A model generated the notes under the pieces. It was not told where the DNA came from and made no database searches. It was given only the letters and a program-made list of their open reading frames with translations. Source: Vibrio vulnificus CMCP6 (lineage in GTDB: Bacteria; Pseudomonadota; Gammaproteobacteria; Enterobacterales; Vibrionaceae). From it: DNA of 32,000 nt. Made by a program: the position numbers and the translations under genes. Each line of letters opens with the position of its first letter. The stretch's first letter is position 1. The stretch spans positions 1,050,001-1,082,000 of the forward strand of contig NC_004460.2 of assembly GCF_000039765.1 (NCBI RefSeq), read 5' to 3'. Below are positions 9,840-30,293 of this stretch, in pieces.

Positions 9840-11042
9840 TTAAAGCTTCGCTTCAACTTTATTGCAGATGTACTCTCCAATTGGCATCGCCGATGTCGCC
9901 GCAGGTGAAGGCGCATTGCACACATGTAAGCTGCGTGGACTTTCGGCAAAGAGAAAATCGTGCACCAATGAACCGTCTGAGAGCACTGCTTGGGCGCGAA
10001 TCCCAGCGGGATAAGGCTGCAAGTCTTCAACTTGGATCATCGGACAATACTTGTTCACCAATTTGAGATACCCCGCCTTCCACCAAGAGTTAATAAACTC
10101 TTTCACCCCAGTGGCAAAGTGCTGTTTGGTCACCTTCCAAAACCCAGCAAAGCGCATCATTTGCCAAGTGTCTTGAATGCTGAAATTGACTCGGCCATAG
10201 CCTTCGCGTTTCCAGCCTTGCACCGCATTCGGCCCCACCGTCACAGAGCCATCAATCATGCGCGTTAAATGCACGCCCAAAAATGGCAAATCCGGATCAG
10301 GGATCGGGTAAATCAGATGTTTCACCACTTGGTTGTGCTTGCTAGGTAACTGGTAGTATTCACCGCGATAGGGGATGATCTGAAAGTCCGTCTCAATACC
10401 CAGCATCTTGGTCAATCGGTCCGCCATCAGCCCGCCGCAGGAAATCAAAAAGCGCCCGTTAAGCTGCAACGTCTCTCCCGCGCACTCGCAGGTAACTTGC
10501 ACTTCATCCGCATGCTCTTCAAGCGCGATCACCTTAGCGTTGAGGCGCACCTCTCCTCCTAAATCCACCAGCTCCTGCGCCATTTTTTCCGTCACCAAAC
10601 GGTAGTCGACAATACTGGTGGACTTCACGTAAATGGCCCCTAAACCGACAATATTGGGCTCCGCCAGTTTCAATTGCGCAGCGTCGAGCAGCTCGACCTC
10701 GATGCCATTCACATGGCAGCGCTCATAAAGCGCATTCATTCTTTCCACTTCTGCGGCCGTCGTCGCCACCAGCAACTTGCCACAGTTTTCAACCGGAATC
10801 TGATGCTTGGCGCAAAATGCCTTGGTGGCTTCCACGCCGCGTTTACAGAAATCCGCTTTTAGACTGCCCGGCGCATAATAAACCCCGGCGTGAATCACGC
10901 CGCTGTTATGCCCCGTTTGGTGACGAGCAAAGCCCGATTCCTTTTCGACCAACAACACCGATTTTTCTGGATAACGCTGCTGCAATTGCCAAGCCGTTGA
11001 GACCCCAACAATCCCGCCACCCACAACAATAAAATCGTACAC
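9840..11042 (-). CDS. lhgO: L-2-hydroxyglutarate oxidase/dehydrogenase (FAD-dependent), 400 aa
   Basis: Near-colinear similarity to recalled E. coli LhgO/YgaF: MYDF--(V/I)[68 protein letters not shown], PAG(I/V)RAQAV and [11 protein letters not shown]. The start is GTG, with GGGAG 7 nt upstream. Confidence 0.9.
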   Translation of the reverse strand: [400 protein letters not shown]

Positions 11043-11079
11043 TTCACTACTCCCTTTTCATTCAGGATGCGTATTTGCA

Positions 11080-11102
11080 CTGCGCTCAAACGATGAGCGC
11101 AG
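11080..11102 (-). other. Perfect 9-bp stem-loop between the TRAP permease stop and lhgO
   Basis: CTGCGCTCA (aacga) TGAGCGCAG with no U-tract. It is more likely an intercistronic stability or processing hairpin than a full terminator. Confidence 0.45.
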
Positions 11103-11107
11103 GAAAA

Positions 11108-13228: not shown

Positions 13229-13269
13229 GGTCAGACTCCGAGGGAACAAGAAACAATAACAAGCCTTAC

Positions 13270-13293
13270 GCCCACCAATGTTCATTGGTGGGC
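13270..13293 (-). other. Intercistronic 10-bp stem-loop between the receptor and permease genes
   Basis: GCCCACCAAT (gttc) ATTGGTGGGC, a perfect stem with no U-tract. This is a position where hairpins commonly raise receptor:permease expression ratios. Confidence 0.55.
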
Positions 13294-13301
13294 AAAGTCG
13301 G

Positions 13302-14312
13302 TTACTTGCTCATCAGAGCATCAGGAATGGTGATGCCCACTTCTTTGTAGTAACGCGCCGCGCCTGGGTGCAGCGGCAGCGGAAGACCCGCAATCGCTTT
13401 TTCTATCGCCATCGCTTTGGTTGCTTTATGGATGCCTTGTAGGAAGGTCAGGTTTTCGTAGATCGCTTTGGTGAGCTGGTAAACGTCTTCATCGGAAATG
13501 TCATCGCGTACCGCAAGGAAGTTGGGCTGAGCGATGGTCGTCACTGGTTTATCCACACCTGGGTAAGTGTTGGCTGGGATGACGTACTTAGTCCAAAGCT
13601 GATATTTGCCATTGGCTTGTTTGATTTGCTCATCGGTAAACGAAAGGAGCTGGATATCGTTCCCCAATGCAGCAAATGCTTGTGTTACCGCGCCCACTGG
13701 CACGCCAGCCGGGGTATTCATACCATCGATGGTGCCATTTTGCATCGCACTCGCACTCGCGCCATAGCCCATGTATGCCAGATTGAACTCATCCGGGTTC
13801 ACACCTAAACCCGACATAATTTGGCGACCCGAGTTTTCTGTCCCGGAGTTTTTGGTACCAATAGAAAACTTCTTATCTTTCATATTGTTCAGATCGGCCA
13901 CTGTGCCAGAGCTGGTCAGGTCGCTGCGTACAATAAAGTGTTCGACGTTTTGCCACAGCATGGAGACTGAACGCAGTTTGGTTTGCGGGCCGCTTTGCGC
14001 GTATGGGCCATCACCTGTTGAAGCCCAAGCGCCATAAAGACCTTGTAGGATGGCAAACTGCGCTTCGTTGTCGTTCATTAGCTTGATGTTTTCGCCTGAT
14101 CCCGCCGAGCTGATCGCAGAGAGAGAAAACTTGTATTGTGGCTCAAGCTTCACTTTGCTTAGCGTTGCCAGTGCCACCCCTACCGGATAATACGTCCCGC
14201 CCGTCGAGGCTGTGGCCAAAATATAGCTGCGGTTATCTGCGGCAGCGACATTGCTGGCCGAGAAACAGACCATGGCGACAGCGAGAGATTTCATCAATAG
14301 GTTCTTTTTCAT
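13302..14312 (-). CDS. TAXI-family TRAP transporter solute receptor (periplasmic binding protein), ~336 aa
   Basis: ATG at 14312 with GGAG upstream. The signal peptide is MKKNLLMKSLAVAMVCFSASNVAA. The mature start ...YILATASTGGTYYPVGVALA... is the TAXI hallmark (TGGTYYP), and the ending PLHPGAARYYKE is also typical of TAXI. Confidence 0.85.
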   Translation of the reverse strand: MKKNLLMKSLAVAMVCFSASNVAAADNRSYILATASTGGTYYPVGVALATLSKVKLEPQYKFSLSAISSAGSGENIKLMNDNEAQFAILQGLYGAWASTGDGPYAQSGPQTKLRSVSMLWQNVEHFIVRSDLTSSGTVADLNNMKDKKFSIGTKNSGTENSGRQIMSGLGVNPDEFNLAYMGYGASASAMQNGTIDGMNTPAGVPVGAVTQAFAALGNDIQLLSFTDEQIKQANGKYQLWTKYVIPANTYPGVDKPVTTIAQPNFLAVRDDISDEDVYQLTKAIYENLTFLQGIHKATKAMAIEKAIAGLPLPLHPGAARYYKEVGITIPDALMSK

Positions 14313-14366
14313 GGTTACACTCCGTTGTAGGGTAGTTGTTATGGTTTTGTTACCTACAGCCTTAGA

Positions 14367-14381
14367 GCAAACAAGATGCCA
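14367..14381 (-). promoter_or_regulatory. Sigma-54 (-24/-12) promoter for the TAXI / permease / lhgO genes
   Basis: The minus strand reads TGGCAT-cttgt-TTGCT, which matches TGGCAC-N5-TTGCW at all but one position. It lies ~55 nt upstream of the ATG at 14312 and immediately downstream of a sigma-54 activator gene. Confidence 0.7.
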
Positions 14382-14464
14382 GTTTTTAAGTGATTGATAT
14401 ATAAACGACACATGATAATAAATCAGTAAAATGAGCAACATTTGGCTGATTTACTCTGCTGAAG

Positions 14465-14747: not shown

Positions 14748-16124
14748 TCAGCTGTCGGTGTAATCGGCGCGATTCAGACCGAGCTTCTGCATTTTTTGGT
14801 TGAGGGTGCGACGAGGAAGATCAAGCTCGTTCATCACCTCCAAAATGCTGCCTTGGTGGCGCACTAAAGCATCGTGAATCACCTTGCGCTCAAAATTGTG
14901 CAGTTGGATGGCCAGCGGCACACCGACGGGCAAGCTCTCTTGCACCATCGCCGCGCGGCTCGAAAGGATCTCCATCACCGACAAGCTCTCATCCAGCGCA
15001 AAACGCACCGCGACATTGCGCAGCTCACGCACATTGCCCGGCCACGCATAGCTTAACAACGCGCGCGAATCGGCAGCGCTGAGCCGACGCTTATTCGGGT
15101 TCGCTTGCGCAGCAAAATGCTCAAACAGCAGCAATGCGTCTTCCTCTCGCTCACGCAATGGCGGCAAGTGCAACTGCGCCACATTGAGACGATAAAACAG
15201 ATCCTGACGAAAAGCGGGATGGTTAAACAAGTTCTCCTTCGCTGCCGCCACCACGCGTAAATCCACATTTACTGGCCGGTTGGCACCCACACGCTCCACC
15301 TGATTTTCTTGCAAACTGCGCAGCACTTTGACTTGCATCGCCATCGGCATGCTTTCAATTTCGTCCATAAACAGGGTGCCTTTATCGGCATACTCAAGCT
15401 TGCCAATGCGGCGCTTACTGGCGCCCGTAAACGCGCCAGCCTCATGACCAAACAGCTCGCTTTCAAAGAGATTTTCCGGAATCGCGCCACAGTTGATGGC
15501 AACAAACGGATTGGCTCGTCGTGCGCTTTCAGTATGTAAGCTGCGCGCCACCAACTCCTTTCCGGTTCCCGTTTCGCCATAGATGATCACATTGGTGTCC
15601 ATGCTGGCTACGCGGGCGACTTGCTCACGTAACTGGCGCATGATCGCGCTTTGACCAATCAAGACCTGCTCAATGCCACTGAGCTGCTGCAGATAGTGGC
15701 TGCGGTTGCCATAGTCTGCTTGCTGCTGATATTCGCTCACCGCGCGCTGCAGTGTCGACGCGAGGCGATCAGGATTAAACGGTTTCTCAATGAAATCGTA
15801 CGCGCCATTTTGCAACGCCTTCACCGCCATATCGACATCGCCATGCCCAGTGACCAAGATGATTGGGCAGCCTACTTGTTCTCGCTGCAACTCGGCCAGC
15901 AGCGTGATGCCATCCAAATCCGGCAAACGCACATCGCTGACGATACCGTCAAAATCGCCGGTTTTGATCGCCGCAAGGGCTGGGAGGCCATGACTAAATG
16001 CCTCAACGTGGAAGCCGGCCAGTTGCAACCATTGGGCGGTTGCTTGGCGGACGATTTCATCGTCTTCAATCAGGGCGATATGGGGGAAAGAAACTGCATC
16101 CATCGAGAAATACCACTTGTCCAT
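14748..16124 (-). CDS. Sigma-54-dependent response regulator (NtrC/DctD family): REC, AAA+, HTH
   Basis: REC (IALIEDDEIVRQ...VSDVRLPDLDG). AAA+ Walker A GETGTGKE. Sigma-54 contact loop GAFTGA and ESELFGHE. C-terminal HTH. The start is uncertain, either ATG 16124 (AGGA 12 nt upstream) or ATG 16103. The track ORF start at 16250 would run into the divergent kinase promoter region. Confidence 0.85.
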   Translation of the reverse strand: MDKWYFSMDAVSFPHIALIEDDEIVRQATAQWLQLAGFHVEAFSHGLPALAAIKTGDFDGIVSDVRLPDLDGITLLAELQREQVGCPIILVTGHGDVDMAVKALQNGAYDFIEKPFNPDRLASTLQRAVSEYQQQADYGNRSHYLQQLSGIEQVLIGQSAIMRQLREQVARVASMDTNVIIYGETGTGKELVARSLHTESARRANPFVAINCGAIPENLFESELFGHEAGAFTGASKRRIGKLEYADKGTLFMDEIESMPMAMQVKVLRSLQENQVERVGANRPVNVDLRVVAAAKENLFNHPAFRQDLFYRLNVAQLHLPPLREREEDALLLFEHFAAQANPNKRRLSAADSRALLSYAWPGNVRELRNVAVRFALDESLSVMEILSSRAAMVQESLPVGVPLAIQLHNFERKVIHDALVRHQGSILEVMNELDLPRRTLNQKMQKLGLNRADYTDS

Positions 16125-16262
16125 CGTGTCAAATTTTCCTGCTGCTACGTTAGCAAAAAGCGCCGAAGGGAAAAGGAGCTGGATCTCACTTCTCAACAAC
16201 AAAGCTTTAACAAACCCAACAAGCAGAGCAATCTTGGGCCAAACAAGCAAGGAGGCAACGCG

Positions 16263-18323
16263 ATGAAAAAACGAGTGGTAGTGCTCATCGCTATCGTCAT
16301 GTGGTTATTTGTCAGCCAATGGGCGGGGAAAGAGCTGGTGCGCCAGTGGCAAACCTCGCGCTCAGTGGTTGACGCGCAGCAACATTTTCTCGATTACATC
16401 GGCGATGTGCGTCGCGCCTTGCAGCGTTTTTATCACTTGCCCTATCTGCTCACCAGCAACAATCACAGCGAACGGTTTCTCAATGGTGAGCGCTCACTCT
16501 ATTCTGAACTCAGACGCGAGTTGACTCTGCTGGATAAAGCGGCCAATACCAAAGGCTGGTATCTGCTCTCTGCCAGTGGCGATGTGCTGGTGTCCAGCTT
16601 GGAAAACGAAGCATTGAGCGAGCAAGATCTCGATGCCATTGTGGAACAAATTCACGCACAAGGGGAAGGGGTCGCTCTGGTCAGCAAAGCCAAGGGGGCG
16701 TCACCATTTTTCTATCTGGCGGCGCCGGTGTACCTCGATTTTGGCATCGCAGGCATTGCCGTGGTGCAAATCAATTTGCGCCTACTCACCGAACAATGGC
16801 TGCTCAGTAGCGATGCCATTTTGTTTCAAAACCAACGTGGTCACTATTTTCTTTCCAGCCACCCGACGCTCACCGCCGATGAGCTGAATGACCGCCTCAG
16901 TGAGATCCAGCAAAGCGAGGCGACATTGCGCGATGGCACGCGTTTGCAATTCTGGCAACTGGAACAACGCCGCTTTCTTGCTCAAACCATTGTTTTGGAC
17001 GATCTCAAATGGCAACTCACCTACCTCACGGATTACCAGCCGATACAGCAAGCGAGCAGCCGCGCAGGTTGGGCGATCCTGTTGGCCAACTTTGTGCTGC
17101 TGTTGGTGGGCGTGATCGCCTATCAACGCCATCAAAAATCGCTCAGCAACCAACGCATCCAACGTTTATTGGATGAGTCGCGCCAGCGGATGAGTCAGAT
17201 GATCAACAAAACCCATGTCGGGCTGTTGCTGCTGAATGGTCATGGTGAGATTGAAGACCTCAACCCGATGGCCAAACGCTATTTCAGCCTCTCCGATTCG
17301 ATGAGTAAACGCGCCCCTGCATGGCAACTGTTTGATACCGGCAATGCCGCCTCCACCACCTTGCAACTGCTGAGAAACTTACCCAAGCATCGCGATCTTG
17401 CGGAGGTGAGTGCAGTGGAAACCATGGGCAGGCGCAGCGATGGCAGCCAATTTCCGTTGCTGTTTTCTCTCACCGCTTTTCCCTGGCATGGCGAGCTTTA
17501 CTATCTCGCCACAGTGCTCGACATCAGCAAACGCAAAAAAGCCGAACAAGCTCTGCAAAAGGCCAACCAAGAGCTGGCGGAACGGGTGGAAGAACGCACC
17601 GCGGCGCTGCGTTCAGCGCAACAAGAATTAATCGAAAGCAGCAAATTAGCGGCGCTGGGTAGGATGTCGAGCGCGATCACTCACGAGCTCAATCAACCGC
17701 TGACAGGGCTAAAAACCCTGCTCACCAGTAACGAGATACTGCTTGAGCGGGGTGAAATGGCGATGTTGCAAGCCAACAATCGACTTATCCATCGCCTGAT
17801 TGATCGCATGGGCAAAATGACCAGCCAGCTTAAATCCTTCGCCTATCAAAAGCCGGACCAGCTTTGCCCAGTCTCCCTGCCGGATGCGTTACAAGAAACC
17901 TTGCGCATTTACCAAGCCGAGCTCGCCCCCATTGATGTACGGGTGCGTTTACCGCATCCACTGGCCGATGTGTTGGGAGAAGAACAACGCTTACGACAAG
18001 TGCTGGGCAACCTGATCTCCAACGCTGTGGACGCAATGAAACACACCGTGCAGCCACAATTGATGATCTCAGCCACCACCTCAGCAACAGCGCTGACGCT
18101 CACCTTGAGTGACAACGGCTGCGGCGTCAGCGAGGAGCAACTGAGCCAGATGTTTGAACCCTTTGCGACAAGCAAAAAAATTGGCGAAGGGCTGGGCTTG
18201 GGCCTGTCGATTACCGCCAACAACATGCGCGATATGCAAGGGCGGATTGCGGTCAACAAAAACGCCAGTGCCGGACTCACCTTTACATTGACGTTTTTAC
18301 TCGCAGAGCCTTCCATATCCTAA
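16263..18323 (+). CDS. DctB-like sensor histidine kinase: double-PDC/dCache-like periplasmic domain, PAS, HisKA, HATPase; 686 aa
   Basis: ATG at 16263 follows AAGGAGG (16249-16255). An N-terminal TM (VVVLIAIVMWLFV) is followed by a ~270-aa periplasmic region, a second TM, PAS, the H-box SSAITHELNQPLTG, and ATPase motifs DNGCGV and GEGLGLGLSI. The 204 upstream codons of track ORF 15651.. are antisense to the regulator gene. Confidence 0.85.
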   Translation: MKKRVVVLIAIVMWLFVSQWAGKELVRQWQTSRSVVDAQQHFLDYIGDVRRALQRFYHLPYLLTSNNHSERFLNGERSLYSELRRELTLLDKAANTKGWYLLSASGDVLVSSLENEALSEQDLDAIVEQIHAQGEGVALVSKAKGASPFFYLAAPVYLDFGIAGIAVVQINLRLLTEQWLLSSDAILFQNQRGHYFLSSHPTLTADELNDRLSEIQQSEATLRDGTRLQFWQLEQRRFLAQTIVLDDLKWQLTYLTDYQPIQQASSRAGWAILLANFVLLLVGVIAYQRHQKSLSNQRIQRLLDESRQRMSQMINKTHVGLLLLNGHGEIEDLNPMAKRYFSLSDSMSKRAPAWQLFDTGNAASTTLQLLRNLPKHRDLAEVSAVETMGRRSDGSQFPLLFSLTAFPWHGELYYLATVLDISKRKKAEQALQKANQELAERVEERTAALRSAQQELIESSKLAALGRMSSAITHELNQPLTGLKTLLTSNEILLERGEMAMLQANNRLIHRLIDRMGKMTSQLKSFAYQKPDQLCPVSLPDALQETLRIYQAELAPIDVRVRLPHPLADVLGEEQRLRQVLGNLISNAVDAMKHTVQPQLMISATTSATALTLTLSDNGCGVSEEQLSQMFEPFATSKKIGEGLGLGLSITANNMRDMQGRIAVNKNASAGLTFTLTFLLAEPSIS

Positions 18324-18854: not shown

Positions 18855-20816
18855 CTATGGCGTCACAATGTTGAACCAGAAATCAAACTTATCCAGCATG
18901 CCAACAAAGTCTTTAAACACCTGCGTATTGCCTTTTAGTTGCACATCACCATCAGCAATTGCTTTCTCCAAGGTAATGTTGCCAAGCTGAACATCGTCTA
19001 AAGTCGCCTTGGTCAAATTCAACGTCACGTCGGCTTTTTTCGCTTGCTTACGCGTGTGGTTGAGCACCGAGTTTTCCACATACAAGGTGTACTGCTCATC
19101 TAAATCGGTGAAATTGATGTTGATGGCGAAGGTTTTACCCGCGGCTTTTTCTGGCAAAATGCGCACCGCTAGGTAATCAAACAACATCTCTGGCGGCATG
19201 TTTTTGATGATGTCGGGCGAGGCCGTATTGGTGCCTCCCGCTTTGGGCGTCCCGTTTCTTAGCTCATAAGCCCCTTGCAAGTAGACCGAGCGCCAAGGGC
19301 CAGATTCCGCTTGATACCCCAACTGCTCGTAAGTATCGGCGAGCAACGCTTTGCCACGCTTACTTTGTGGGTTAGCAAAAACAACATGTTTGAGCACTTC
19401 CGCCACCCAGCGGTAGTTGCCTTTATCGAAATCCGCTTGCGCCTTGTCGATGGTTGCGCTTTCGCCGCCCATGTACTCAACGTATTTCACCGCTGCGTTG
19501 GTTGGCGGTAAGTTGTTGAGATCGGAAGGATTACCAGAATACCAACCCATGTAGCGCTGATAAACCGCTCGGCTGTTGTGGCGCAAGGTGCCGTAGTAAC
19601 CGCGTGTACTCCAGTTCTTCTCCAACTCCTCTGGGAATTGAATCACTTCCGAGATTTCAGAGCCGATGTACCCTTGGTTCATCAAGCGTACGGTTTGGTC
19701 GTGCGTGTACTTGTACATATCACGCTGGCCTTTAAAGTAAGCAACAATCTCTTTGCTGCCCCACATTGGCCAGTGGTGACTTTGGAATTTCACTTCCACC
19801 TCATCACCCCACATTTCAATGGTTTCGTTGAGGTAAGAGGACCACTTGAGCGCATCACGCACCTGCGCTCCGCGCAACGTGAGGATGTTGTGCATGGTGT
19901 TGGTGGAGTTCTCTGCCATCCACAACGCTTTTTTGTCTGGGAACCAAGTATTGATTTCGGTTGGTGCTTCCGTGCCTGGGGTGTATTGGAACACCATGCG
20001 CACGCCATCCACCGTCAGCTCTTCACCGGTTTTTTCAATAATACGGGTGGGGACAATCAAGGTTGGTAAGCCCGTTGACGTGGTTTGGCCTAAGCCACCG
20101 TTGACCCCGCCACGTTCATTGCGCGGCAGCAAAGCACCATACATATAGATCGCGCGTCGGCCCATCGCATTGCCTGCAATCACGTTTTCTGACACTGCAT
20201 GTTCCGTGAAGCCGTGTGAGGCAATGATCTCCACCTTGCCCGCTTTCACATCTTCTTCATTCACGATGCCGCGAACCCCACCAAAGTGGTCAATGTGACT
20301 GTGCGAGTAGATCACCGCCGTCACTGGGCGCTCACCAAGCTGAGCGTTAACAAACTCCAGCGCCGCTTTAGCGGTTTCTTGGGAAATCAACGGGTCGAAG
20401 ACGATCCACCCTTTATCCCCTTTAATAAAGGTGATGTTGGAAAGATCGTAAGCGCGCACCTGATAAATGCCCTCAGTCACCTCAAACAGACCATTGATCA
20501 TATTGAGCTGCGCGTTACGCCATAAACTGGGGTTCACGCTATCTGGCGCTTTATTTTCTAGCGAGATGAACTGCTTGTACGCTTCCAGATCCCACACCAC
20601 ATCGCCATTGGCGTTTTTGATGATGACCACATCTTGTTTGGCGATCAAACCTCGTTGGGCATTCTTAAAATCGGTTTCATCCTTAAAATTTAACGCTTGA
20701 TACACCGCCTGATTGGCTTCAATCGTGGCTTGTGTCGCCGGTTTAGATGGGATGGGTTCGGCCAGAACGGCCCCTGACGTGAGCGCGAGCGCGATATACA
20801 AAGAGAGTGGTTTCAT
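18855..20816 (-). CDS. Alkyl/aryl-sulfatase of the metallo-beta-lactamase fold (SdsA1/YjcS/BDS1 family), secreted
   Basis: MBL motif YSHSHIDHFGG, length of ~650 aa, and a C-terminal SCP2-like region as in SdsA1/YjcS. The signal peptide is MKPLSLYIALALTSGAVLA. I place the start at the second ATG (20816), which is 6 nt after AAAGGA. The track start 20822 abuts the RBS. Confidence 0.85.
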   Translation of the reverse strand: MKPLSLYIALALTSGAVLAEPIPSKPATQATIEANQAVYQALNFKDETDFKNAQRGLIAKQDVVIIKNANGDVVWDLEAYKQFISLENKAPDSVNPSLWRNAQLNMINGLFEVTEGIYQVRAYDLSNITFIKGDKGWIVFDPLISQETAKAALEFVNAQLGERPVTAVIYSHSHIDHFGGVRGIVNEEDVKAGKVEIIASHGFTEHAVSENVIAGNAMGRRAIYMYGALLPRNERGGVNGGLGQTTSTGLPTLIVPTRIIEKTGEELTVDGVRMVFQYTPGTEAPTEINTWFPDKKALWMAENSTNTMHNILTLRGAQVRDALKWSSYLNETIEMWGDEVEVKFQSHHWPMWGSKEIVAYFKGQRDMYKYTHDQTVRLMNQGYIGSEISEVIQFPEELEKNWSTRGYYGTLRHNSRAVYQRYMGWYSGNPSDLNNLPPTNAAVKYVEYMGGESATIDKAQADFDKGNYRWVAEVLKHVVFANPQSKRGKALLADTYEQLGYQAESGPWRSVYLQGAYELRNGTPKAGGTNTASPDIIKNMPPEMLFDYLAVRILPEKAAGKTFAININFTDLDEQYTLYVENSVLNHTRKQAKKADVTLNLTKATLDDVQLGNITLEKAIADGDVQLKGNTQVFKDFVGMLDKFDFWFNIVTP

Positions 20817-20968
20817 TGTCATTCCTTTTATGAACCTAACTGCACTCCAACAACGTAGACCACGCTCATCGCGTTCGCCATTTTCTACTGTTTTTTCATT
20901 GAGATATCGGGCACAGAATCAAACTTATCTTGCGAATGAGAGCCGTTGCATCCACGCAACAAAACAAC

Positions 20969-21528: not shown

Positions 21529-22224
21529 ATGAAACTTCTGATCATTGAAGACGAAAAGAAAACCGGGACGTATTTAAGAAAAGGACTTTCAGAAGCAGGC
21601 TATCTCGTCAATCTTGCCTGCGATGGGGTTGATGGCCTCTATCAAGCCACCAGCCAACGCTATGATTTAATTGTATTGGACGTGATGTTGCCCCACCTCA
21701 ATGGTTGGCAAGTGTTGCGCGCTCTGCGCAGTAACCAAGTCGACACCCCGGTGATTCTGCTCACCGCACGCGATCAAGTCGAAGATCGAGTCAAAGGACT
21801 GGAACTGGGCGCTGATGATTACATCGTTAAACCCTTCGCCTTTGTCGAACTGTTGGCGCGCATTCGCACCGTGCTCAAACGCCAACAACCCACCACCCAA
21901 AGCACCACCCGGCTTTCCATCGCCAATCTCCATCTGGATCTGTTGCGACGCAAAGTGTTTCGCGACAAAGAACCCATTGCCCTCACCGCCAAAGAGTTTG
22001 CCTTGTTGGAGCTGTTTATGCGCAAAACGGGGGAAGTGATGTCGCGCAGCCAAATCGCCTCTTCCGTTTGGGACATGAATTTCGACAGTGACACCAATGT
22101 CATCGACGTGGCCGTGCGGCGGCTGCGCAATAAAGTCGACAAACCGTTTGAGCCGAAATTGATTCACACTGAACGTGGCATGGGCTACGTGCTTGAGGAG
22201 CGAGAGCCTTGTTATGGGATTTAG
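21529..22224 (+). CDS. OmpR-family response regulator of the CusR/CopR/HprR (heavy-metal) subfamily
   Basis: Strong colinear similarity to recalled E. coli CusR: MKLLI(V/I)[60 protein letters not shown] and FEPKLI-T-RG-GY-LE. Confidence 0.9.
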
Positions 22225-23566
22225 ATCGATCACCACTCGGCTGACTTTTTCCTACTTTTTTGCCTCTCTGTTGGTACTTGTGTCACTGAGTGCCGCGGTA
22301 CTGTGGGCGGTCAAACATCATCTTTACGAGCAAGATCGCTACAACTTACAGCAAAAGTTCAACACGATTAACGAACTGAGAGTGCGAGGCGATTTCATCA
22401 GCCAATATGGCCCTTTCTTTGAAAAAGGCGACACCAAACTCTGGCTGCTCAATGGCAATCAGGTGGAATACCAGTCTCAATCGCTCGCTTTGCCGCAAAG
22501 GTTCATCAACAAAGCCAGCATGGAACGCATAGATTGGCAGGAAAATGGCCACCATTACCGAGCCATCCGTTTCCCGCTGAGTAGCTCGCCAGAGTGGTAC
22601 GCGGTGTTGGGGCTGAACATCGACCTGCACATTACCTTTCTGTCCAACTTCAAACAGGTGCTGCTGTGGATCACCTTTTTCGCCAGCATCGTCAGTGGCT
22701 TTCTCAGTTGGTTCATTGCGCGCAAAGGGCTCAAACCTTTGGCCAAACTTGAACAATACGTGGATGCCATTTCTACGGAAGAGCTCAGTGTCCGCGTCCC
22801 ACAGCAGCCCTTTCCGGAGGAATTATTGCCATTGGTGGCACGTTTCAACCGCATGCTTTCTCGCCTTCAGGGCGATTTTGAACGCCTATCGGAATTTTCA
22901 TCCGACATCGCCCACGAGCTGCGCACCCCCATCGGCAATATGATGACGCAAACCCAAGTGATGCTGGCCAAACCGCGCAGTGAGCAAGAATATCGCGATA
23001 TTTTGGAATCCAACGCCGAAGAGCTCAGTCGTCTCACCAAAACCATCTCCGATATGCTCTATTTGGCCAAATCGGAGCACAACTTGTTGATGAAAAACAA
23101 CGAGCCGATCGACCTCAAATTGCTGCTGGAGGATCTGGCGGAATACTACGAGTTAGCGGGGGATGAAAAGTCCCTCACCATTACTTGTTTTGGTGAAGGG
23201 CAAGTGGTCGGGGACAGAACCATGCTAAAGCGTGCGTTCGCCAACTTGCTCTCCAACGCGGTGCGCCACAGTTACCCAGAGAGCAATATCACCGTCGAGA
23301 TTTTCCCGCATTTGATCGGCTACCAAATTGCCGTGACCAATCACGGAGAGACCATCGAATCCACGCAAATCCCACGCTTATTCGAGCGTTTCTATCGCGC
23401 CGACAAATCGCGCACTCACCAACAAAGTGGTGGCGCGGGCTTGGGCTTACCCATTTCTCGTTCCATAGCCAAATTGCATGGCGGCGATATTTACGCCCAG
23501 TCCAAGCACGACTTAACCACCTTTACGCTCACCTTGAGTGATGTAGTTATCCATCCGGCTCACTGA
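22214..23566 (+). CDS. CusS-like (heavy-metal-type) sensor histidine kinase, 450 aa
   Basis: The ATG at 22214 overlaps the regulator stop by 11 nt. Two TMs flank a ~150-aa periplasmic loop. HAMP is followed by the H-box [13 protein letters not shown] and ATPase motifs [10 protein letters not shown] and [19 protein letters not shown]. Confidence 0.85.
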
Positions 23567-24420
23567 AATTTTTCGCGAAACAGCTCAATCAGCACTTTCA
23601 CTTTCTCCGGAAGGTAAAGTGCTGACGGGTAGATTAAGGTCAAGTGTTGTTTCGCATGGGTGAGGTGGGGCAACACTTCCACTAAGTTGCCCTCTTCCAA
23701 CGCGGGTTTGGAATGTACTTGCGGAATAAACGCAATCCCTTGCCCTGCCATCGCCATGGAACGCAGCAAATGCAAATCGTCCGATTTCAGTGCCAGCGGC
23801 AAACTGGGATCCAGCAAGTCAGCATTGTAGCGGTTGGTCAGCAAGCGGTGCTGGCGCAAATCTTCTAAGCAATGAATCGCAGGATGCGTTGCTAAGTAAG
23901 CTTGCGAGGCCACCAAATGCGAGCGATAGGGAAGCAAGCTAAACTGCACATAGCTGTCGTCACTGACCTTCGCCCCATCAGGCAAGAGCTGAAGATCGAA
24001 CGCCTGACGGCGCAGATCGACACTTTGCTGATGGTTTTCAATCTCCAAGGAGACCGAGGGAAAACGCAGGCTAAATTGGCTGATGATGGCGTTAAACGCC
24101 GCCGAGGTCATCAAAGCCGAAGGGATCGCCAAACGTACTTTACCCCCCGATGGCTGATTGTGCTCAGACATCACCGCCAACCCTTGTTGCAAATGCGTCA
24201 TCGGCTGACCCACCAGTTCAATCAAGCGTTGACCTTGCTCGGTCAATTCAATTGAGCGCGTGGTGCGAATCAACAACTGACACCCCAGCGCCTTTTCCAG
24301 CTCTTGCAAACGGCGGCTGACTTTAGAGCGTTGCATTTTCTGCACGTTGGCTGCGGCACTGATGCCGCCATGCATCACCGTTTGGGTAAACAGATAGAGA
24401 TCATCGAGACTGACGTTCAT
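23560..24420 (-). CDS. LysR-family transcriptional regulator (AaeR-like position)
   Basis: N-terminal wHTH (GGISAAANVQKMQRSKVSRRLQELEKALGCQLLIRTTR) and a LysR substrate-binding fold. It is divergent from the HlyD gene. Its 3' end overlaps the kinase stop by 7 bp (convergent). Confidence 0.85.
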   Translation of the reverse strand: MNVSLDDLYLFTQTVMHGGISAAANVQKMQRSKVSRRLQELEKALGCQLLIRTTRSIELTEQGQRLIELVGQPMTHLQQGLAVMSEHNQPSGGKVRLAIPSALMTSAAFNAIISQFSLRFPSVSLEIENHQQSVDLRRQAFDLQLLPDGAKVSDDSYVQFSLLPYRSHLVASQAYLATHPAIHCLEDLRQHRLLTNRYNADLLDPSLPLALKSDDLHLLRSMAMAGQGIAFIPQVHSKPALEEGNLVEVLPHLTHAKQHLTLIYPSALYLPEKVKVLIELFREKFQ

Positions 24421-24519
24421 TGTCCTACTTTTAGCTCATTAATGTCTTTTTTCACATTCTACTGCACAACGTCTCCCTTCTCTATAATCGCACTCTTTCT
24501 TTTTAAACTGATAGATTCT

Positions 24520-25584
24520 ATGACTGCAGAACATAAATTTCGCGTTTGGATGAGAAGCCTGATTGTCCTATTCATCGCACTATTTTTCTACATCATCCTG
24601 GCTGACCAACACGCTCCCATCACCACCGAAGGTCGCGTTCAAGGTTATGTTGTGCAAGTCGCCCCTGAAGTGTCGGGCAAAGTGACCCAAGTGCAGATCC
24701 ACAATAACCAACATGTTCAACAAGGGGATGTGCTGTTTAGCATTGATGCACGTAAATACCGCATTGCCTTAGAGCAAGCCAAGCTCTCGCTGCAATCTGC
24801 CTTAGAAAAAGAAGCGACGCTCTATTCTCAACGCGAAGCGGCACTGGCGAATATTGCGCGAGCACAAGCGACTTATGACAACGCCCATCGAGAGTATCTG
24901 CGCCTGCAAAAGCTCTCGACGCAGCAAGTAATTTCCCGCTCAAGCCTCGATAACTCCTTTGCGCAAAACCAAGTGGCCAACGCCAACTTAAAAGCCGAGC
25001 AGCAAAGCCTCAACGTGATTGAAGCGCAACTAGGCCAAGGTGAAGGACAAAGCACCGCAGTGCGCGTGGCGCAAAACGGCATTGAAAAAGCGCAGTTGGA
25101 TTTAGCCAATACTCAGGTGCTTGCCCCCAGCGATGGTGTGGTGACCAACTTGCAATTGGAAGTGGGCAGCATGGCCAACGCCAACCAGCCCCTGCTGACT
25201 TTCATTCCAACCGGTTCACTGTGGGTAACGGGGGATTTTCGCGAAAAATCCGTCGCCAAGGTAGATGATCGCTATCATGCCATGGTGGCGTTTGATGCCT
25301 ATCCGGGCCAAGTGTTTGATTTCTCGCTCTCTAGCCGAGATTACGGTGTTGCTGCCGCGCAGCAAAAACCTAACGGCTCATTAACCAGCGTAGAAATCAA
25401 CAACCGCTGGGTACGCGATGCGCAGAGAACACGCGTCAATCTCGCCACTGACGATGCCATGCCTGCGGCACTGTTTGTTGGCTCTCGCGCCACTATCGTG
25501 CTCTACCCACCAGAGGAGACCTTATGGCGTTGGATGGCCACTTGGCAAATCAAGCTCGCCAGCCTGTTCCACTACGTGTACTAG
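24520..25584 (+). CDS. HlyD-family membrane fusion / efflux adaptor protein (AaeA-like)
   Basis: It has one N-terminal TM (MRSLIVLFIALFFYIILA), then V-VAPEVSGKVTQVQIHNNQHVQQGDVLFSID and coiled-coil and beta-barrel segments colinear with recalled AaeA. TATAAT lies at 24483-24488. The RBS is weak and the track ORF start at 24304 is antisense to lysR. Confidence 0.8.
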   Translation: MTAEHKFRVWMRSLIVLFIALFFYIILADQHAPITTEGRVQGYVVQVAPEVSGKVTQVQIHNNQHVQQGDVLFSIDARKYRIALEQAKLSLQSALEKEATLYSQREAALANIARAQATYDNAHREYLRLQKLSTQQVISRSSLDNSFAQNQVANANLKAEQQSLNVIEAQLGQGEGQSTAVRVAQNGIEKAQLDLANTQVLAPSDGVVTNLQLEVGSMANANQPLLTFIPTGSLWVTGDFREKSVAKVDDRYHAMVAFDAYPGQVFDFSLSSRDYGVAAAQQKPNGSLTSVEINNRWVRDAQRTRVNLATDDAMPAALFVGSRATIVLYPPEETLWRWMATWQIKLASLFHYVY

Positions 25585-25593
25585 AGGGGCAAG

Positions 25594-26601
25594 ATGAAAA
25601 CTCAGCGAATTTGGTTTGGCTGCGCCAGCGGCCTTGCCCTGAGCATGCTCTTTGGCTGGTCTTACGGTTTTTTCGCCATCATGCTGCCACTGTTTATTCT
25701 CAGCAGAACCGATAGCTTTCAGCTCTCACGGCTACTGATGGTGGTTTTTTCCGCCGTCTGGACCACAGTACAAGCAACCTTTTTGTTGGAATATCTGCAG
25801 TTCCACCCCGTGCTCATGACGGTGGCGGTGGGGCTGTTTTTCCTCATCAAATGCATTGCGATGATGAATCCCAACACCTACTTGTTTGGCTATATGGGGC
25901 TGTTGGTTGGGTCGATCGTACTGAACTTTGCCAGCTATGATTTCATCGATATCGAAGATTTTAACCTCAACTTGTGGGTCATTTCCCTTGCGAACATTGC
26001 CATTTGTGCGCTGGCTTTTTGGCTCTTTCCCGAGCCTAAACGCGACGAGTTTCAGGATGCCATGACCACACCCGTCAAAAGCGATATGGACTACATCAGC
26101 CAAGTAGCGATGGGTTGGGTGGTCGCCATGGCCGCTTTTCTGCTGTTTCAATTTGCCGATCTTTACGACTCGCTCTCAGCGCAAGCGTCAATCATCATCA
26201 TTCTTACACCAATGACCTTGGCTGGCTCCATGGCGATGGCAAAAATCCGCGTCATTGGCACCGCGCTGGGTTGCTTAGCTGGTTTGGCAGTTCAACTGGT
26301 GTTAGGCGGTTGGTATAGCAATGGCTTGCTGTTTTGGCTCGCGCTGACCATCGCCATGGGGCCATTTTGTTATTTGCTCACCAAGGGGCCAATCAAAGGT
26401 GCGATCGCATTTTCGGCGATGTCGGCACTGGCCGTGCCGCTGACGGCGATTGTCCCCGAAGGCAAAGACGCGTTCTTTTCGATTTTGTACCGCTTTAGCT
26501 CCATCTTTGTCGCCGTGACCGCCACAGCGATGTTGATGTGGGTAGTGCATCATGGCATTCGCGCGTTGTTATTGAAGCATCCTGAAATTCAGAATGTATA
26601 G
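25594..26601 (+). CDS. Polytopic inner-membrane protein, FUSC/AaeB-like but half-length, 335 aa (I recall such partners being labelled DUF2955, unverified)
   Basis: GAGGGG RBS 9 nt after the HlyD stop. It has about 9-10 hydrophobic segments. The call rests on the position downstream of an AaeA-like gene under a divergent LysR regulator. Confidence 0.6.
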   Translation: MKTQRIWFGCASGLALSMLFGWSYGFFAIMLPLFILSRTDSFQLSRLLMVVFSAVWTTVQATFLLEYLQFHPVLMTVAVGLFFLIKCIAMMNPNTYLFGYMGLLVGSIVLNFASYDFIDIEDFNLNLWVISLANIAICALAFWLFPEPKRDEFQDAMTTPVKSDMDYISQVAMGWVVAMAAFLLFQFADLYDSLSAQASIIIILTPMTLAGSMAMAKIRVIGTALGCLAGLAVQLVLGGWYSNGLLFWLALTIAMGPFCYLLTKGPIKGAIAFSAMSALAVPLTAIVPEGKDAFFSILYRFSSIFVAVTATAMLMWVVHHGIRALLLKHPEIQNV

Positions 26602-26659
26602 AGAAGTTGGGAAAAAAGAACCTTGCGGAGATTCCCACTCTGGCGAGTGACATGCTGAT

Positions 26660-26697
26660 AAAACAAAAGCCAAGCGCTGATCACTTGGCTTTGTTTT
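26660..26697. terminator. Bidirectional Rho-independent terminator between convergent FUSC-like and mesD genes
   Basis: AAAACAAAAGCCAAG (cgctgatca) CTTGGCTTTGTTTT, with A/T tracts on both sides. Confidence 0.7.
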
Positions 26698-26725: not shown

Positions 26726-27754
26726 TTATTTCGCCAGCTCTTTTCGCACAATCGCAGCGCCGGCGGCTAAAGCATTGAGCTTGGCGGCGGAAACATCACG
26801 AGCAAGTGGTGCCATGCCGCAGTTGGTGCATGGGTAGAGCTTGTCTGCATCGACGTATTTCAACGCTTCACGCAGGGTGTTGGCCACTTCTTCTGGCGTT
26901 TCAATCTCGTTGGTGGCGACGTCAATTGCGCCGACCATCACTTTCTTGCCGCGGATCAACTCAAGCAGCTCAATCGGCACGCGCGAGTTGTGGCATTCCA
27001 GCGAGATAATATCGATGTTGGATTTCTGCAGTTTCGGGAACACTTCTTCGTATTGTCGCCACTCAGAGCCAAGCGTTTTCTTCCAATCGGTGTTGGCTTT
27101 GATGCCGTAGCCATAACAGATATGCACCGCCGTTTCGCATTTCAGCCCTTCGATAGCGCGCTCCAAACAAGCAATGCCCCAATCGTTGACATCATCAAAA
27201 AAGACGTTAAACGCGGGTTCATCAAATTGGATGATGTCGACGCCCGCCGCTTCAAGCTCTTTCGCTTCTTGGTTAAGGATCTTAGCGAACTCCCACGCCA
27301 GTTTTTCGCGGCTGCCGTAGTAATCATCATAGAGTGTGTCGATCATCGTCATTGGCCCCGGCAGCGCCCACTTAATCGGCTGCTTGGTTTGCTGGCGCAA
27401 GTATTTGGCATCGTCCACAAACACTGGCTTAGTGCGGCTCACCGGCCCCACGACCGTCGGCACGCTCGCCTCATAACGGTTACGAATGGTCACCGTTTTG
27501 CGGTTTTCAAAATCCACCCCGCTCAGGTGCTCAATAAAAGTCGTCACAAAGTGTTGGCGAGTCTGTTCGCCGTCACTGACAATATCCACACCCGCTCGTT
27601 CTTGCTCGTGCAAAGAGAGGCGCAGCGCATCGCGTTTGCCGTCCGTCAGTTCATCGCCTTGCAGTTTCCATGGCGACCAAAGTGTTTCCGGCTCAGCCAG
27701 CCATGAAGGTTTCGGTAAGCTGCCCGCGGTTGAAGTGGGTAATAGTGTTTTCAT
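26726..27754 (-). CDS. mesD: Core (single-domain) cobalamin-independent methionine synthase homologue, MesD-type
   Basis: ~342 aa, homologous only to the C-terminal catalytic barrel of MetE (LPTSTAGSLPKP..., VDIIQFDEPA, AVHICYGYG, YPCTNCGMAP). It lies immediately downstream of a DUF1852-like gene. I place the start at the second ATG (27754), 6 nt after AAGGGA; the track start is 27760. Confidence 0.8.
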   Translation of the reverse strand: MKTLLPTSTAGSLPKPSWLAEPETLWSPWKLQGDELTDGKRDALRLSLHEQERAGVDIVSDGEQTRQHFVTTFIEHLSGVDFENRKTVTIRNRYEASVPTVVGPVSRTKPVFVDDAKYLRQQTKQPIKWALPGPMTMIDTLYDDYYGSREKLAWEFAKILNQEAKELEAAGVDIIQFDEPAFNVFFDDVNDWGIACLERAIEGLKCETAVHICYGYGIKANTDWKKTLGSEWRQYEEVFPKLQKSNIDIISLECHNSRVPIELLELIRGKKVMVGAIDVATNEIETPEEVANTLREALKYVDADKLYPCTNCGMAPLARDVSAAKLNALAAGAAIVRKELAK

Positions 27755-27784
27755 CGTCATTCCCTTCTCGATTCTACTGATTGC

Positions 27785-28759
27785 TTACGCGTAATTGGCC
27801 GACCATTGCTCAAGGAGCGATTGGTACGGTTTGATGAAATGCGCTTCGGCAAAGCGACCTTGTTCAATAGCCAATTGGCTGCGCTCTTCTCGGTCGTAGA
27901 CGATTTGAGTTAACGAGTGGTCAAGGTTCTTCAAGTTGGGTTGGTAGCGTTGCCCTGCTACGGCATTGGCGTTGTAAATCTCCGGGCGGTAAATCTTTTG
28001 GAACGTCTCCATGGTGCTGATGGTACTGATGAGCTCAAGGTTCGAGTAATCGTTCAGCAAGTCACCAAAGAAATAAAACGCCAGCGGCGCAACGCTGTTT
28101 GGCGGCATAAAGTAGCGCACCTGCAAGCCCATTTTCTGGAAGTATTGCTCGGTCAGCGAGGAGTCGTTGGGCAGATACTCATACCCCAACACCGGATGCT
28201 GGTTTTCCGTGCGGCGGTAGATCTTGTTGTCCGACACGCTCAGGCAGATCACGGGTAGCTTTTTGAAATGCTGTTGATACTCAGCCGAGCTGACAAACGC
28301 CTTAAACAGCTTGCCGTGCAGCTCACCAAAATTCGCTGGAATGCTGAACTGAGGCTGATTTTTGTTGTGATCCAGCAACAGCACGCTGAAGTCGTAATCA
28401 CGCACATAAGACGAGAAGTTGTTGCCGACAATGCCTTCAATGCGCTCATTGGTTTTTCGGTCAAGAATGTTGGTTTTGAGCACTTCAATCGAGGGAAAAG
28501 CGTCGCCACTGCCGTGAATATCGATATCCACGGAGATGATGTCCAACTCCACCGAGTAACGATCGCCGGCTGGGTTATCCCAACTCGCCATGGCGTTAAA
28601 ACGGTTGTTGATCATGCGAAGCGCATTGCGCAGGTTCTCTTGACGGCGCTGACCACGAGCCAAGTTGGCAAAGTTGGTGGTGATGCGCGTGTTGTCCGAG
28701 GGCTGGTAGTTCTCGTCAAAGCGAATGCGTTTGATCGCAAACGTGAAATCGTTGTTCAT
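27785..28759 (-). CDS. mesX: DUF1852-family protein (MesX, the required partner of MesD), ~325 aa
   Basis: ATG at 28759 (MNNDFTFAIKRIRFDENYQPSDNTRITTNFANLARG...) with AGGAG upstream. I recognise the family from memory of this conserved N-terminus and from the invariant pairing with a short MetE-like gene. There are 24 nt to mesD. The track ORF start at 28885 adds 42 unlikely codons. Confidence 0.72.
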   Translation of the reverse strand: MNNDFTFAIKRIRFDENYQPSDNTRITTNFANLARGQRRQENLRNALRMINNRFNAMASWDNPAGDRYSVELDIISVDIDIHGSGDAFPSIEVLKTNILDRKTNERIEGIVGNNFSSYVRDYDFSVLLLDHNKNQPQFSIPANFGELHGKLFKAFVSSAEYQQHFKKLPVICLSVSDNKIYRRTENQHPVLGYEYLPNDSSLTEQYFQKMGLQVRYFMPPNSVAPLAFYFFGDLLNDYSNLELISTISTMETFQKIYRPEIYNANAVAGQRYQPNLKNLDHSLTQIVYDREERSQLAIEQGRFAEAHFIKPYQSLLEQWSANYA

Positions 28760-29678
28760 GGTGAGTGGGTCTCCTATTTCCTTAGATAACGCTGACTTTT
28801 CCTCTCTGGGCATGGGGTGGTTGTGTTTTTTGGTTTTCCCAATCGCCAGTTTGCGCTGCGTTTCGTCTTTGACACAAAAACGCACTCACCTTGGCAAGCA
28901 CCAGAGCAGTCCGGTTTTTATACTTGCTTCGCGACTTGAAGAATATTGGTATTGTTTCACATTGAACATGAAGGAAATTCATGGTTTAGGAATGAGCGGC
29001 GGCAGGAAAAGCACCCACCAGCCGCCAACAACATGAACGATGAAGGTTTTGTTTGCAATGACAGTCCGTAGCGAGCTCAATGTGCACGCTACCCAATCAT
29101 TCAAAAATTAAGATCATGCAACATTGCCAATAACGATAGCGATAAAAAACAGTTGTCGTACATTGAGAAGATTTACCCCCAACATCCACAAAAATTGTTA
29201 TCTCATCTTCATCAATGAGTTTACGCACGAAAAGCCTGACTTAATGAAAATAATTTTGGAAGTCATTAGTAAAAATCGAGGTGAGGTGTTCGAAAGCAAT
29301 ATCAATAAATATTCAGCAAAAAAGAAATAGATTTTCCGACTCAATTTTCACTCGCTATTTAGGCAATACCAATCAATGCAATAAAAATTGCTTCTCTAGA
29401 GATAAACGATAATAGGAAATAGGAAATAGGAAAAAAACATCGAATAAAATACTAATTTACTAATGTCTAATTTTTAAATCGTATACAAAATCTTTACTCT
29501 GACATACCTACGAACACTTTTACTTAAATCATGCAGATTTTTCACAAAATTATTCATGTTTTCTATCAATAAAATATTGCACACTGTTCATCAGTTATCT
29601 TGATCATTAAGGAAATGGTTCAGACTAGGAAGTAACTGGATAACAAAGTGTTGTATTAATTTAAAGATAGGAACAAAC

Positions 29679-30293
29679 ATGACAAACAAATCCATTCTTA
29701 CTCTAGTTATCGCAGGAACAATCTCTTTTGGAGCGCAGTCAGAGCCGTACTTAGGTGCTTCACTAGGCTTAGCATCGTTTAAAAATGCGGTGGGGAATGC
29801 TAACACGAGTTTTGGTTCTGGTTCGATGGACTTGGCACTAGACGATGATCAAAGCGTTGCGGGCAGTATCTATGGCGGTTATAAGTTCAATTCATTTCTC
29901 GCTCTTGAAGGTGCTATTGGTGGGTACGATGCTTTAGAAGACACTTATGTAACTGTCGGTAATATGTACTTTTTATCCGTTCAACCCAAATTATCATTTT
30001 CATTAACCGACACTTTTGAATTGTATGCGAAGGCAGGGGTAGCCTATTTCAACGCAGAGTTTAAAGTGTCGAATGCTCTGGTAAATGCACCGGGCTACTC
30101 TACCCTTTCTGATAGCACTTTAACGGGTATGTATGGTTTAGGTGCTGAACTTAAATTATCACCAACGTTTCATATTCGAGCATCTTGGGACTTCATGCGC
30201 CCAGAATTGGATGTCGTGAAAGTTGGCACGGAAAATATCAGTATTGAATCAGACATTAGCGTATTCTCTTTAGGCGCTAGCTATCATTTTTAA
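29679..30293 (+). CDS. Outer-membrane beta-barrel protein (OmpA-like transmembrane / OMP_b-brl family), 204 aa
   Basis: Signal peptide MTNKSILTLVIAGTISFGAQS. Alternating amphipathic beta-strands with aromatic girdles (YGGYKF, YAKAGVAYF). The C-terminus ...SLGASYHF ends in the terminal Phe typical of BAM substrates. AGGA RBS. Confidence 0.75.
   Translation: MTNKSILTLVIAGTISFGAQSEPYLGASLGLASFKNAVGNANTSFGSGSMDLALDDDQSVAGSIYGGYKFNSFLALEGAIGGYDALEDTYVTVGNMYFLSVQPKLSFSLTDTFELYAKAGVAYFNAEFKVSNALVNAPGYSTLSDSTLTGMYGLGAELKLSPTFHIRASWDFMRPELDVVKVGTENISIESDISVFSLGASYHF

Follow-up and report, generated by a model that had tools for sequence, protein, structure and literature searches.

Vibrio vulnificus is a facultative anaerobe, and two adjacent minus-strand genes in strain CMCP6 raise the question of whether it carries a methionine synthase that requires oxygen in place of methyl-folate and cobalamin, and how such an enzyme would obtain its methyl group. 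The genes lie in a stretch of 32,000 nucleotides (nt) of contig NC_004460.2 (positions 1,050,001 to 1,082,000), which was analysed whole and is hereafter called the window; all coordinates below are window positions. They are interpreted, with a probability of roughly 0.88, as a mesX-mesD operon encoding the MesD/MesX methionine synthase of Price, Deutschbauer and Arkin 2021 (PMC7857596), with the mechanism, regulation and role set out below. This is a re-identification of a known and named system: the 2021 publication covers the family, the pairing and the need for oxygen, the name has entered Pfam, and both genes are already annotated in V. vulnificus genomes. Nothing in the locus is new in kind, and the value of the analysis lies in confirmation and context. 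A first-pass annotation, made from the letters alone, had assigned the genes to this system in a Vibrio-like host. The host is indeed V. vulnificus (99 % identity), and the assignment is supported by the protein families, the similarity to the MesD structure 3RPD, the active-site residues and the synteny described in turn below.

The two co-directional genes previously proposed at 27785-28759 (mesX) and 26726-27754 (mesD) are borne out by the open reading frames (ORFs) and by starts that homologues support. In the mechanical ORF list mesX extends over 27785..28885 from a GTG start (366 amino acids, aa), but alignment of the product, residues 1-321 of 324, with positions 1-323 of 323 of the Pfam MesX model places the start at ATG 28759. 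The same Met is used by 80/80 homologues, with a conserved GGATACCAGATCACCATGAA ribosome-binding stretch before the start. The mesD ORF is listed as 26726..27760 (344 aa, on which the residue numbers below are counted), and its third codon is ATG 27754, giving a product of 342 aa. The latter start appears likelier than the alternative ATG 27760, because positions 1-341 of 342 in the NCBIfam model NF006589 align with residues 3-343, and because the Shine-Dalgarno sequence GAGAAGGGA stands 6-7 nt ahead of that codon. The 24-nt gap previously given between the genes is correct for ATG 27760, but with the coordinate 27754 that accompanied it the gap is 30 nt. This minus-strand spacer (27755..27784) carries the mesD Shine-Dalgarno sequence, is equal in length to that of V. 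campbellii and is consistent with a single transcript. The transcript would end at an intrinsic terminator on the 3' side of mesD (26656..26692, minus strand), recognised in the sequence and by terminator scan from an 11-base-pair stem and T run, which according to the scan also reads on the plus strand, for the convergent DUF2955 gene.

Along its whole length the mesX product matches PF08908 ('MesX, putative oxygenase'), scoring 612.4 bits where the cut-off is 25 (E = 2e-184), in agreement with its earlier description as a DUF1852 protein. Its closest relatives are V. vulnificus proteins annotated 'DUF1852 domain-containing protein' (98-99 % identity), followed by those of the V. harveyi clade (~90 %), with the V. 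campbellii protein among the latter matches. The family is narrow, with 335 representatives after clustering at 50 % (E ≤ 0.001), most of them fragments; full-length outliers share 35-42 % identity with the window protein. In an alignment of eighteen sequences, twenty residues are invariant (G112, D121, D123, F124, F144, G145, L147, S174, Y181, Y206, M210, M250, I256, Y257, I261, Y262, L276, Y288, D289 and Q300), and six others are nearly so (R120, H148, R258, E260, E292 and R293). No Cys is conserved in this alignment, the only one in the window protein (C172) being Ala in the other members. An AlphaFold2 model built from the same alignment (predicted local distance difference test score 92.3; predicted template modelling score 0.91) has antiparallel strands of about fourteen residues (68-81, 87-100 and 105-117), further strands and long helices, and no (beta-alpha)8 barrel. 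A Foldseek search against 350,542 PDB chains returned no fold relative (best E = 0.13; template modelling score ≤ 0.2), and no relative was found in the PDB by sequence search, or by profile search at E ≤ 10. Likewise, no natural fusion of MesX and MesD occurs among the long or two-stretch family representatives, and a literature search found no later paper that solves the chemistry of MesX.

The mesD product was earlier described as homologous only to the catalytic C-terminal barrel of MetE, and the Pfam comparison concurs. Meth_synt_2, the MetE catalytic barrel, is the sole domain (residues 7-331), and the match to Meth_synt_1 (16.8 bits; cut-off 27) is confined to a 64-residue stretch within the same barrel. 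With 704 bits the protein clears the cut-off of the equivalog model NF006589 (392). It fails the models of canonical MetE (TIGR01371, 107.6 against 929.95 bits; NF003556, 116.1 against 541 bits), in both of which only the C-terminal half of the model is matched, that of the YxjG/YxjH type (NF004875, 49.7 against 576 bits), and three others for short 'methionine synthase' proteins (NF003317, 233.8/406; NF002119, 129.8/258; NF002272, 94.1/399). It thus stands apart from folate-using MetE and from YxjG-type enzymes, as had been anticipated. Its best solved relative is PDB 3RPD, a 'methionine synthase (B12-independent)' of Shewanella sp. W3-18-1 (675 bits, ~88 % identity over 339 residues, 4-342), while the scores are about 85 bits for MetE structures and 32 bits for the YxjG/YxjH-type structure 1YPX. 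Similarity to MesD was judged against 3RPD, the criterion given by Price et al. being at least 390 bits in BLASTp, at about 55 % identity, to ACIAD3523. The same authors count 3RPD, which was crystallised with zinc and selenomethionine bound in the site, among the MesD proteins, and list as its ligands Ser22, Glu73, Asp188, the MesD-specific Tyr226 and an H-C-E-C zinc site (PMC7857596). Mapped through the 3RPD alignment, the zinc ligands (H213, C215, E255 and C314) and substrate ligands (S14, E65, D180 and the MesD-specific Y218) of the window protein are all intact, and its active-site residues are identical to those of 3RPD. That structure differs from the present system in holding the MesD subunit by itself, and no MesX structure accompanies it. 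On the residues retained, the mesD product is thus identified as a zinc enzyme composed of the MetE catalytic barrel alone, without the folate-binding N-terminal barrel. Canonical MetE (E. coli, Arabidopsis and T. maritima; 1U1J, 1T7L) has in common with it the C-terminal barrel, activation of homocysteine as a zinc thiolate and control of the MetR type. It differs in its Meth_synt_1 barrel, which mesD lacks, in the equivalog cut-offs, far below which mesD scores, and in its methyl source, which for MesD is, by the published account, not methyl-folate.

The distribution of the two genes among relatives was assessed by a scan of one genome per species, which returned 586 relatives, and the loci of the best eighty of these, with MesX proteins 78-89 % identical to that of the window, were analysed. 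Their hosts are marine Gammaproteobacteria, including Vibrio, Photobacterium, Grimontia, Rheinheimera, Pseudoalteromonas, Colwellia, Shewanella, Marinomonas and Cellvibrio. In 80/80 of the related loci mesD comes next after mesX, in the same orientation and at a distance of 12-222 nt, although one mesD is truncated and another is interrupted by a contig end. Because the order is kept in every locus, the pairing as read from these sequences is not due to chance. In the published survey MesX occurred in 395/399 proteomes with MesD, and MesD was confined to aerobic or facultative genera (PMC7857596), among which V. vulnificus falls.

The two best characterised pairs, Ga0059261_2929/2928 of Sphingomonas koreensis and ACIAD3523/3524 of Acinetobacter baylyi, are similar by published description to that of the window, with the same two Pfam families adjacent in an aerobic host, and with a MesD that has the core MetE barrel, the HCEC zinc ligands, the S/E/D substrate ligands and the family Tyr. 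They differ in that a flavin reductase gene is adjacent there (ACIAD3522 and Ga0059261_2931), while none stands beside the window operon. In both species mesD and mesX are needed in the absence of B12, and metF is not. E. coli delta-metE and delta-metF strains are rescued by the two genes together and by neither alone, aerobically and not anaerobically, and many genomes that have MesD as their only methionine synthase are reported to be without metF (PMC7857596). The earlier account of these results (a need for MesX and oxygen, restriction to aerobes, independence of MetF and cobalamin, and the position on the methyl donor) agrees with the published text. Strains that have MesD as their only methionine synthase are resistant to nitrous oxide (PMC13059711), which fits cobalamin independence. 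In A. baumannii, B12 represses the DUF1852 gene by 8.3 log2 units, the adjacent methionine synthase gene by 6.6 and a flavin reductase gene by 2.5 (PMC12892962).

By analogy with the genetics in those organisms, the V. vulnificus MesD would make methionine from homocysteine, given MesX and oxygen, without MetF (5-methyltetrahydrofolate) and without cobalamin. Price et al. predict that MesX provides the methyl group through an oxidative reaction, and report that a flavin reductase gene is often adjacent (PMC7857596). In line with this, MesX may use oxygen to convert a central metabolite into an electrophilic methyl donor, which could be either a small molecule or a methylated residue of MesX itself, and the zinc-activated homocysteine thiolate of MesD would then attack this donor. 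MesX probably also uses reduced flavin; as the locus encodes no reductase dedicated to this purpose, a general one is proposed as the supplier. The role of the operon would be aerobic synthesis of methionine when B12, and hence MetH activity, is short.

The control region fits such a role. When the 300 nt preceding mesX were aligned for 81 loci, a conserved module emerged, comprising, in that order, ATGA-N7-TCAT, aTGAAaTaAaa.CatTTTTaTTCAtg and gTATAAA, and the window copy (ATGAATTTCCTTCAT...TGAAACAATACCAATATTCTTCA...TATAAA) is found at 28982-28917. The exact motif TGAA-N5-TTCA occurs in 24/81 upstream regions, where chance would give 0.034 per 500 nt. A profile of the module (nhmmer) matches upstream of mesX in 73/81 loci and at three other places in about 1 Mb, two of which (in L047 and L049) lie between a TauE-like gene and a divergent MetR-like LysR gene. 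The MetR consensus of E. coli and Salmonella is TGAA-N5-TTCA and the general LysR rule is T-N11-A, and the promoter-distal box of the window, ATGAATTTCCTTCAT (TGAA-N5-TTCA; 28968..28982, minus strand), fits both. The promoter-proximal LysR-type site, TGAAACAATACCAATATTCTTCA (28935..28961, minus strand), overlaps the -35 region, and the -10 hexamer TATAAA (28917..28922, minus strand) belongs to a near-invariant gTATAAA in the aligned loci. These elements place a putative transcription start near 28910, with a leader of about 150 nt, so positioned that the midpoints of the distal and proximal sites fall about 65 and 37 nt ahead of it. This is the classic layout of a LysR-activated promoter, and we infer that MetR binds there. 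The operon would accordingly be predicted to be activated by a MetR-type LysR regulator, as part of a homocysteine-responsive and B12-repressible methionine regulon.

In fifteen of the related loci (L017, L018, L024, L025, L031, L033, L044, L047-L049, L053, L059, L065, L077 and L079) a MetR-like LysR paralogue adjoins mesXD. These proteins are 54-92 % identical to each other and have MetR as their best NCBIfam match (195 bits; cut-off 382). This paralogue could be a dedicated regulator of the promoter module, to judge by its position, and none is encoded beside the window operon. The LysR gene that does occur nearby (23560-24420) was considered as a regulator of mesXD and set aside, as it is YafC-like, not MetR-like, faces efflux genes and is probably unrelated. 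It is divergent from a pair encoding an HlyD-type membrane-fusion protein and a DUF2955/FUSC-like protein (23560-26601), in a layout resembling that of AaeAB efflux systems. The pair is convergent with mesD and has the 26656-26692 terminator in common with it.

A riboswitch or attenuator in the mesX leader, suggested by a terminator-like hairpin at 28901..28882, was rejected on several grounds. Rfam has no match anywhere in the window at the gathering score, and none at E ≤ 10 in 28650-29700; the fold of the 168-nt leader is no better than that of shuffled sequences (z = -0.46); the hairpin has four G-U pairs; and relatives differ in the spacing between the -10 hexamer and the ATG, which ranges from 35 to 242 nt. 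A MetJ operator upstream of mesX was likewise dismissed, the best match to two tandem AGACGTCT boxes being 9/16, which is at background level. Three Rheinheimera loci (L012, L013 and L019) have a good tandem MetJ-box match, AGTCTAGACGTCTAGATG, situated about 10-30 nt past the -10 hexamer.

The response of the orthologous pair to B12 can be followed in V. campbellii. According to the rows listed in Data S2 of an RNA-sequencing study (PMC11837498), growth without B12 induced a 975-bp 'hypothetical protein' gene with PF08908 (Ga0226122_01_2156244_2157218) by 7.47 log2 units and a 1029-bp gene annotated 'metE'/K00549, with PF01717 only (Ga0226122_01_2155185_2156213), by 7.31, the two highest values among those rows. 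The genes btuB, metF, metR, metA, metB, metL and metNIQ were co-induced, and a downstream isochorismatase-family gene and a GNAT gene rose by about 3.7 log2 units. The gene lengths, the order and the 30-nt spacer are as in the window. The neighbouring genes differ, and the study treats the longer gene as canonical MetE and leaves mesX unremarked. Judged by size and domain content, the 'metE' is a mesD and its neighbour is a mesX. PF08267, the N-terminal domain of MetE, is absent from the rows listed, which is only suggestive that V. campbellii is without a canonical MetE.

Several observations weigh against an oxidative, donor-making MesX. No recognisable metal or flavin motif was found in the protein, its sole near-invariant His being H148, and it has no fold relative. 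There is no dedicated flavin reductase gene in the window, and the link between such a gene and mesXD is weak among the relatives as well, a Fre-like NAD_binding_1 gene adjoining in just 4/80 loci. Price et al. themselves concede that the oxygen requirement is possibly indirect (PMC7857596). Furthermore, PF08908 proteins 35-42 % identical to the window MesX are encoded without mesD and in unrelated contexts (L081, L082, L083, L086 and L088/L089). In three of these contexts the PF08908 gene precedes, respectively, one for a LuxR/GerE-type regulator, one whose small product has an N-terminus resembling a signal peptide, and two small convergent ORFs that match no family. In the other two it shares a 10-kb contig with a short-chain dehydrogenase/reductase, a phosphopantetheinyl transferase and AhpC, or lies 45 nt downstream of the phosphoenolpyruvate carboxylase gene. 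Because these divergent members occur without mesD, the activity of PF08908 need not be bound to MesD, and its basic activity may be broader than serving that enzyme. Such points would suit an accessory role for MesX, in maintenance of the zinc site or its redox state, or as an activase or scaffold, with MesD using an existing donor and oxygen acting indirectly through respiration, quinones or hydrogen peroxide. This is nevertheless considered unlikely. S-adenosylmethionine and S-methylmethionine derive from methionine and would yield no net synthesis, while the other donors need MetF or cobalamin, which the published genetics exclude. By the same account, mesD by itself fails in E. coli, where the common donors are all present. 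The invariable order of the genes and their short spacing in all eighty loci, together with their induction to nearly the same extent, are moreover what would be expected of stoichiometric catalytic partners.

Two further interpretations concern the substrates. The order of the genes, accessory then barrel, resembles the order of the domains in MetE, and metF is co-induced with the pair among the V. campbellii rows listed, so that the two products might be envisaged as a split conventional MetE, with MesX standing for the folate-binding barrel and 5-methyl-tetrahydropteroyl-polyglutamate as donor. This reading is scarcely tenable and was rejected, being contradicted by the family of MesX, its modelled fold and the delta-metF rescue. 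PF08908 is the only Pfam family matched by the eighteen MesX members at E ≤ 1, Meth_synt_1 included in the search, and MesX matches no MetE structure, though the PDB has many. The predicted fold has long antiparallel strands and is not a (beta-alpha)8 barrel, and in the published work mesD and mesX together rescue E. coli delta-metF, in keeping with the many MesD-only genomes that have no metF. It is also very improbable that the V. vulnificus pair methylates another thiol or selenol, or acts catabolically. The genes flanking it in the window, for an OmpA-like protein, a GGDEF protein and the efflux pair, are unrelated to methionine and would permit this, but mesD is ~88 % identical to 3RPD, whose site is described as holding zinc and selenomethionine, with all substrate ligands kept. 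The promoter is of the MetR type by its motifs, and the V. campbellii orthologues track the methionine regulon and B12 status in the rows available.

While a methionine synthase composed of MesD and an oxygen-dependent MesX remains the preferred interpretation, the genes that adjoin the pair elsewhere may bear on its substrate. Permease genes of the TauE/SafE family (PF01925) adjoin mesX-mesD in 37/80 related loci. They belong to two subfamilies, 33-38 % identical to each other, each with a fixed position: the first upstream of mesX and always divergent (24 loci), the second downstream of mesD (10 co-directional and 3 convergent). The promoter module recurs near the permease gene in L047 and L049. 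Two lineages appear to have joined the operon independently, and a separate copy of the module stands near one of them, which argues for a functional tie between permease and mesXD. The tie is not universal, because the window operon has no such neighbour and the PF01925 genes of V. campbellii are barely B12-responsive in the rows listed. Price et al. are silent on this linkage (PMC7857596). A more far-reaching proposal is put forward only tentatively, as the odds are somewhat against it. In this proposal MesX would be a structurally new, oxygen-dependent maker of the methyl donor, assisted in many marine Gammaproteobacteria by a co-regulated TauE/SafE permease for an anionic substrate or by-product, and in vibrios the pair, and not canonical MetE, would be the reported 'B12-independent methionine synthase'. 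The promoter module, the permeases of the TauE type and the MetR-like paralogue offer clues to the methyl donor that can be put to the test, and are not proofs.

Were the vibrio enzyme so named to be MesD/MesX, B12-free methionine prototrophy in these bacteria would depend on oxygen. Should V. vulnificus and related species depend on this system over a true MetE at low B12, their methionine supply would fail in anoxic, B12-poor niches, which, if true, would be relevant to a pathogen that is facultatively anaerobic. It would also affect surveys in which 'MetE' is counted by KEGG K00549 or PF01717 only, the V. campbellii study being an example.

Some additional features of the window were observed. 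Between the mesX promoter module and a divergent OmpA-like gene (29679-30293) lie about 700 nt (28983-29678) that are AT-rich, with a guanine-cytosine fraction of 0.357 over 29001-30000 against 0.49 for the window, and in which no ORF stands out. On the minus strand at 9840-14441 are encoded an NMT1_3 (TAXI-type) binding protein, a fused DctM-type TRAP permease of 725 aa and a flavin adenine dinucleotide-dependent oxidoreductase of the DAO family. An alkyl sulfatase gene (18855-20822; metallo-beta-lactamase, Alkyl_sulf_dimr and Alkyl_sulf_C domains) lies upstream of genes for an OmpR-type response regulator and a CusS-like sensor kinase (21529-23566). Finally, a 500-aa ORF (14748-16250, minus strand, TTG start) overlaps by about 600 nt with the start of an 890-aa PAS/HATPase_c ORF (15651-18323, plus strand, TTG start), and at least one of these two start calls is probably wrong.

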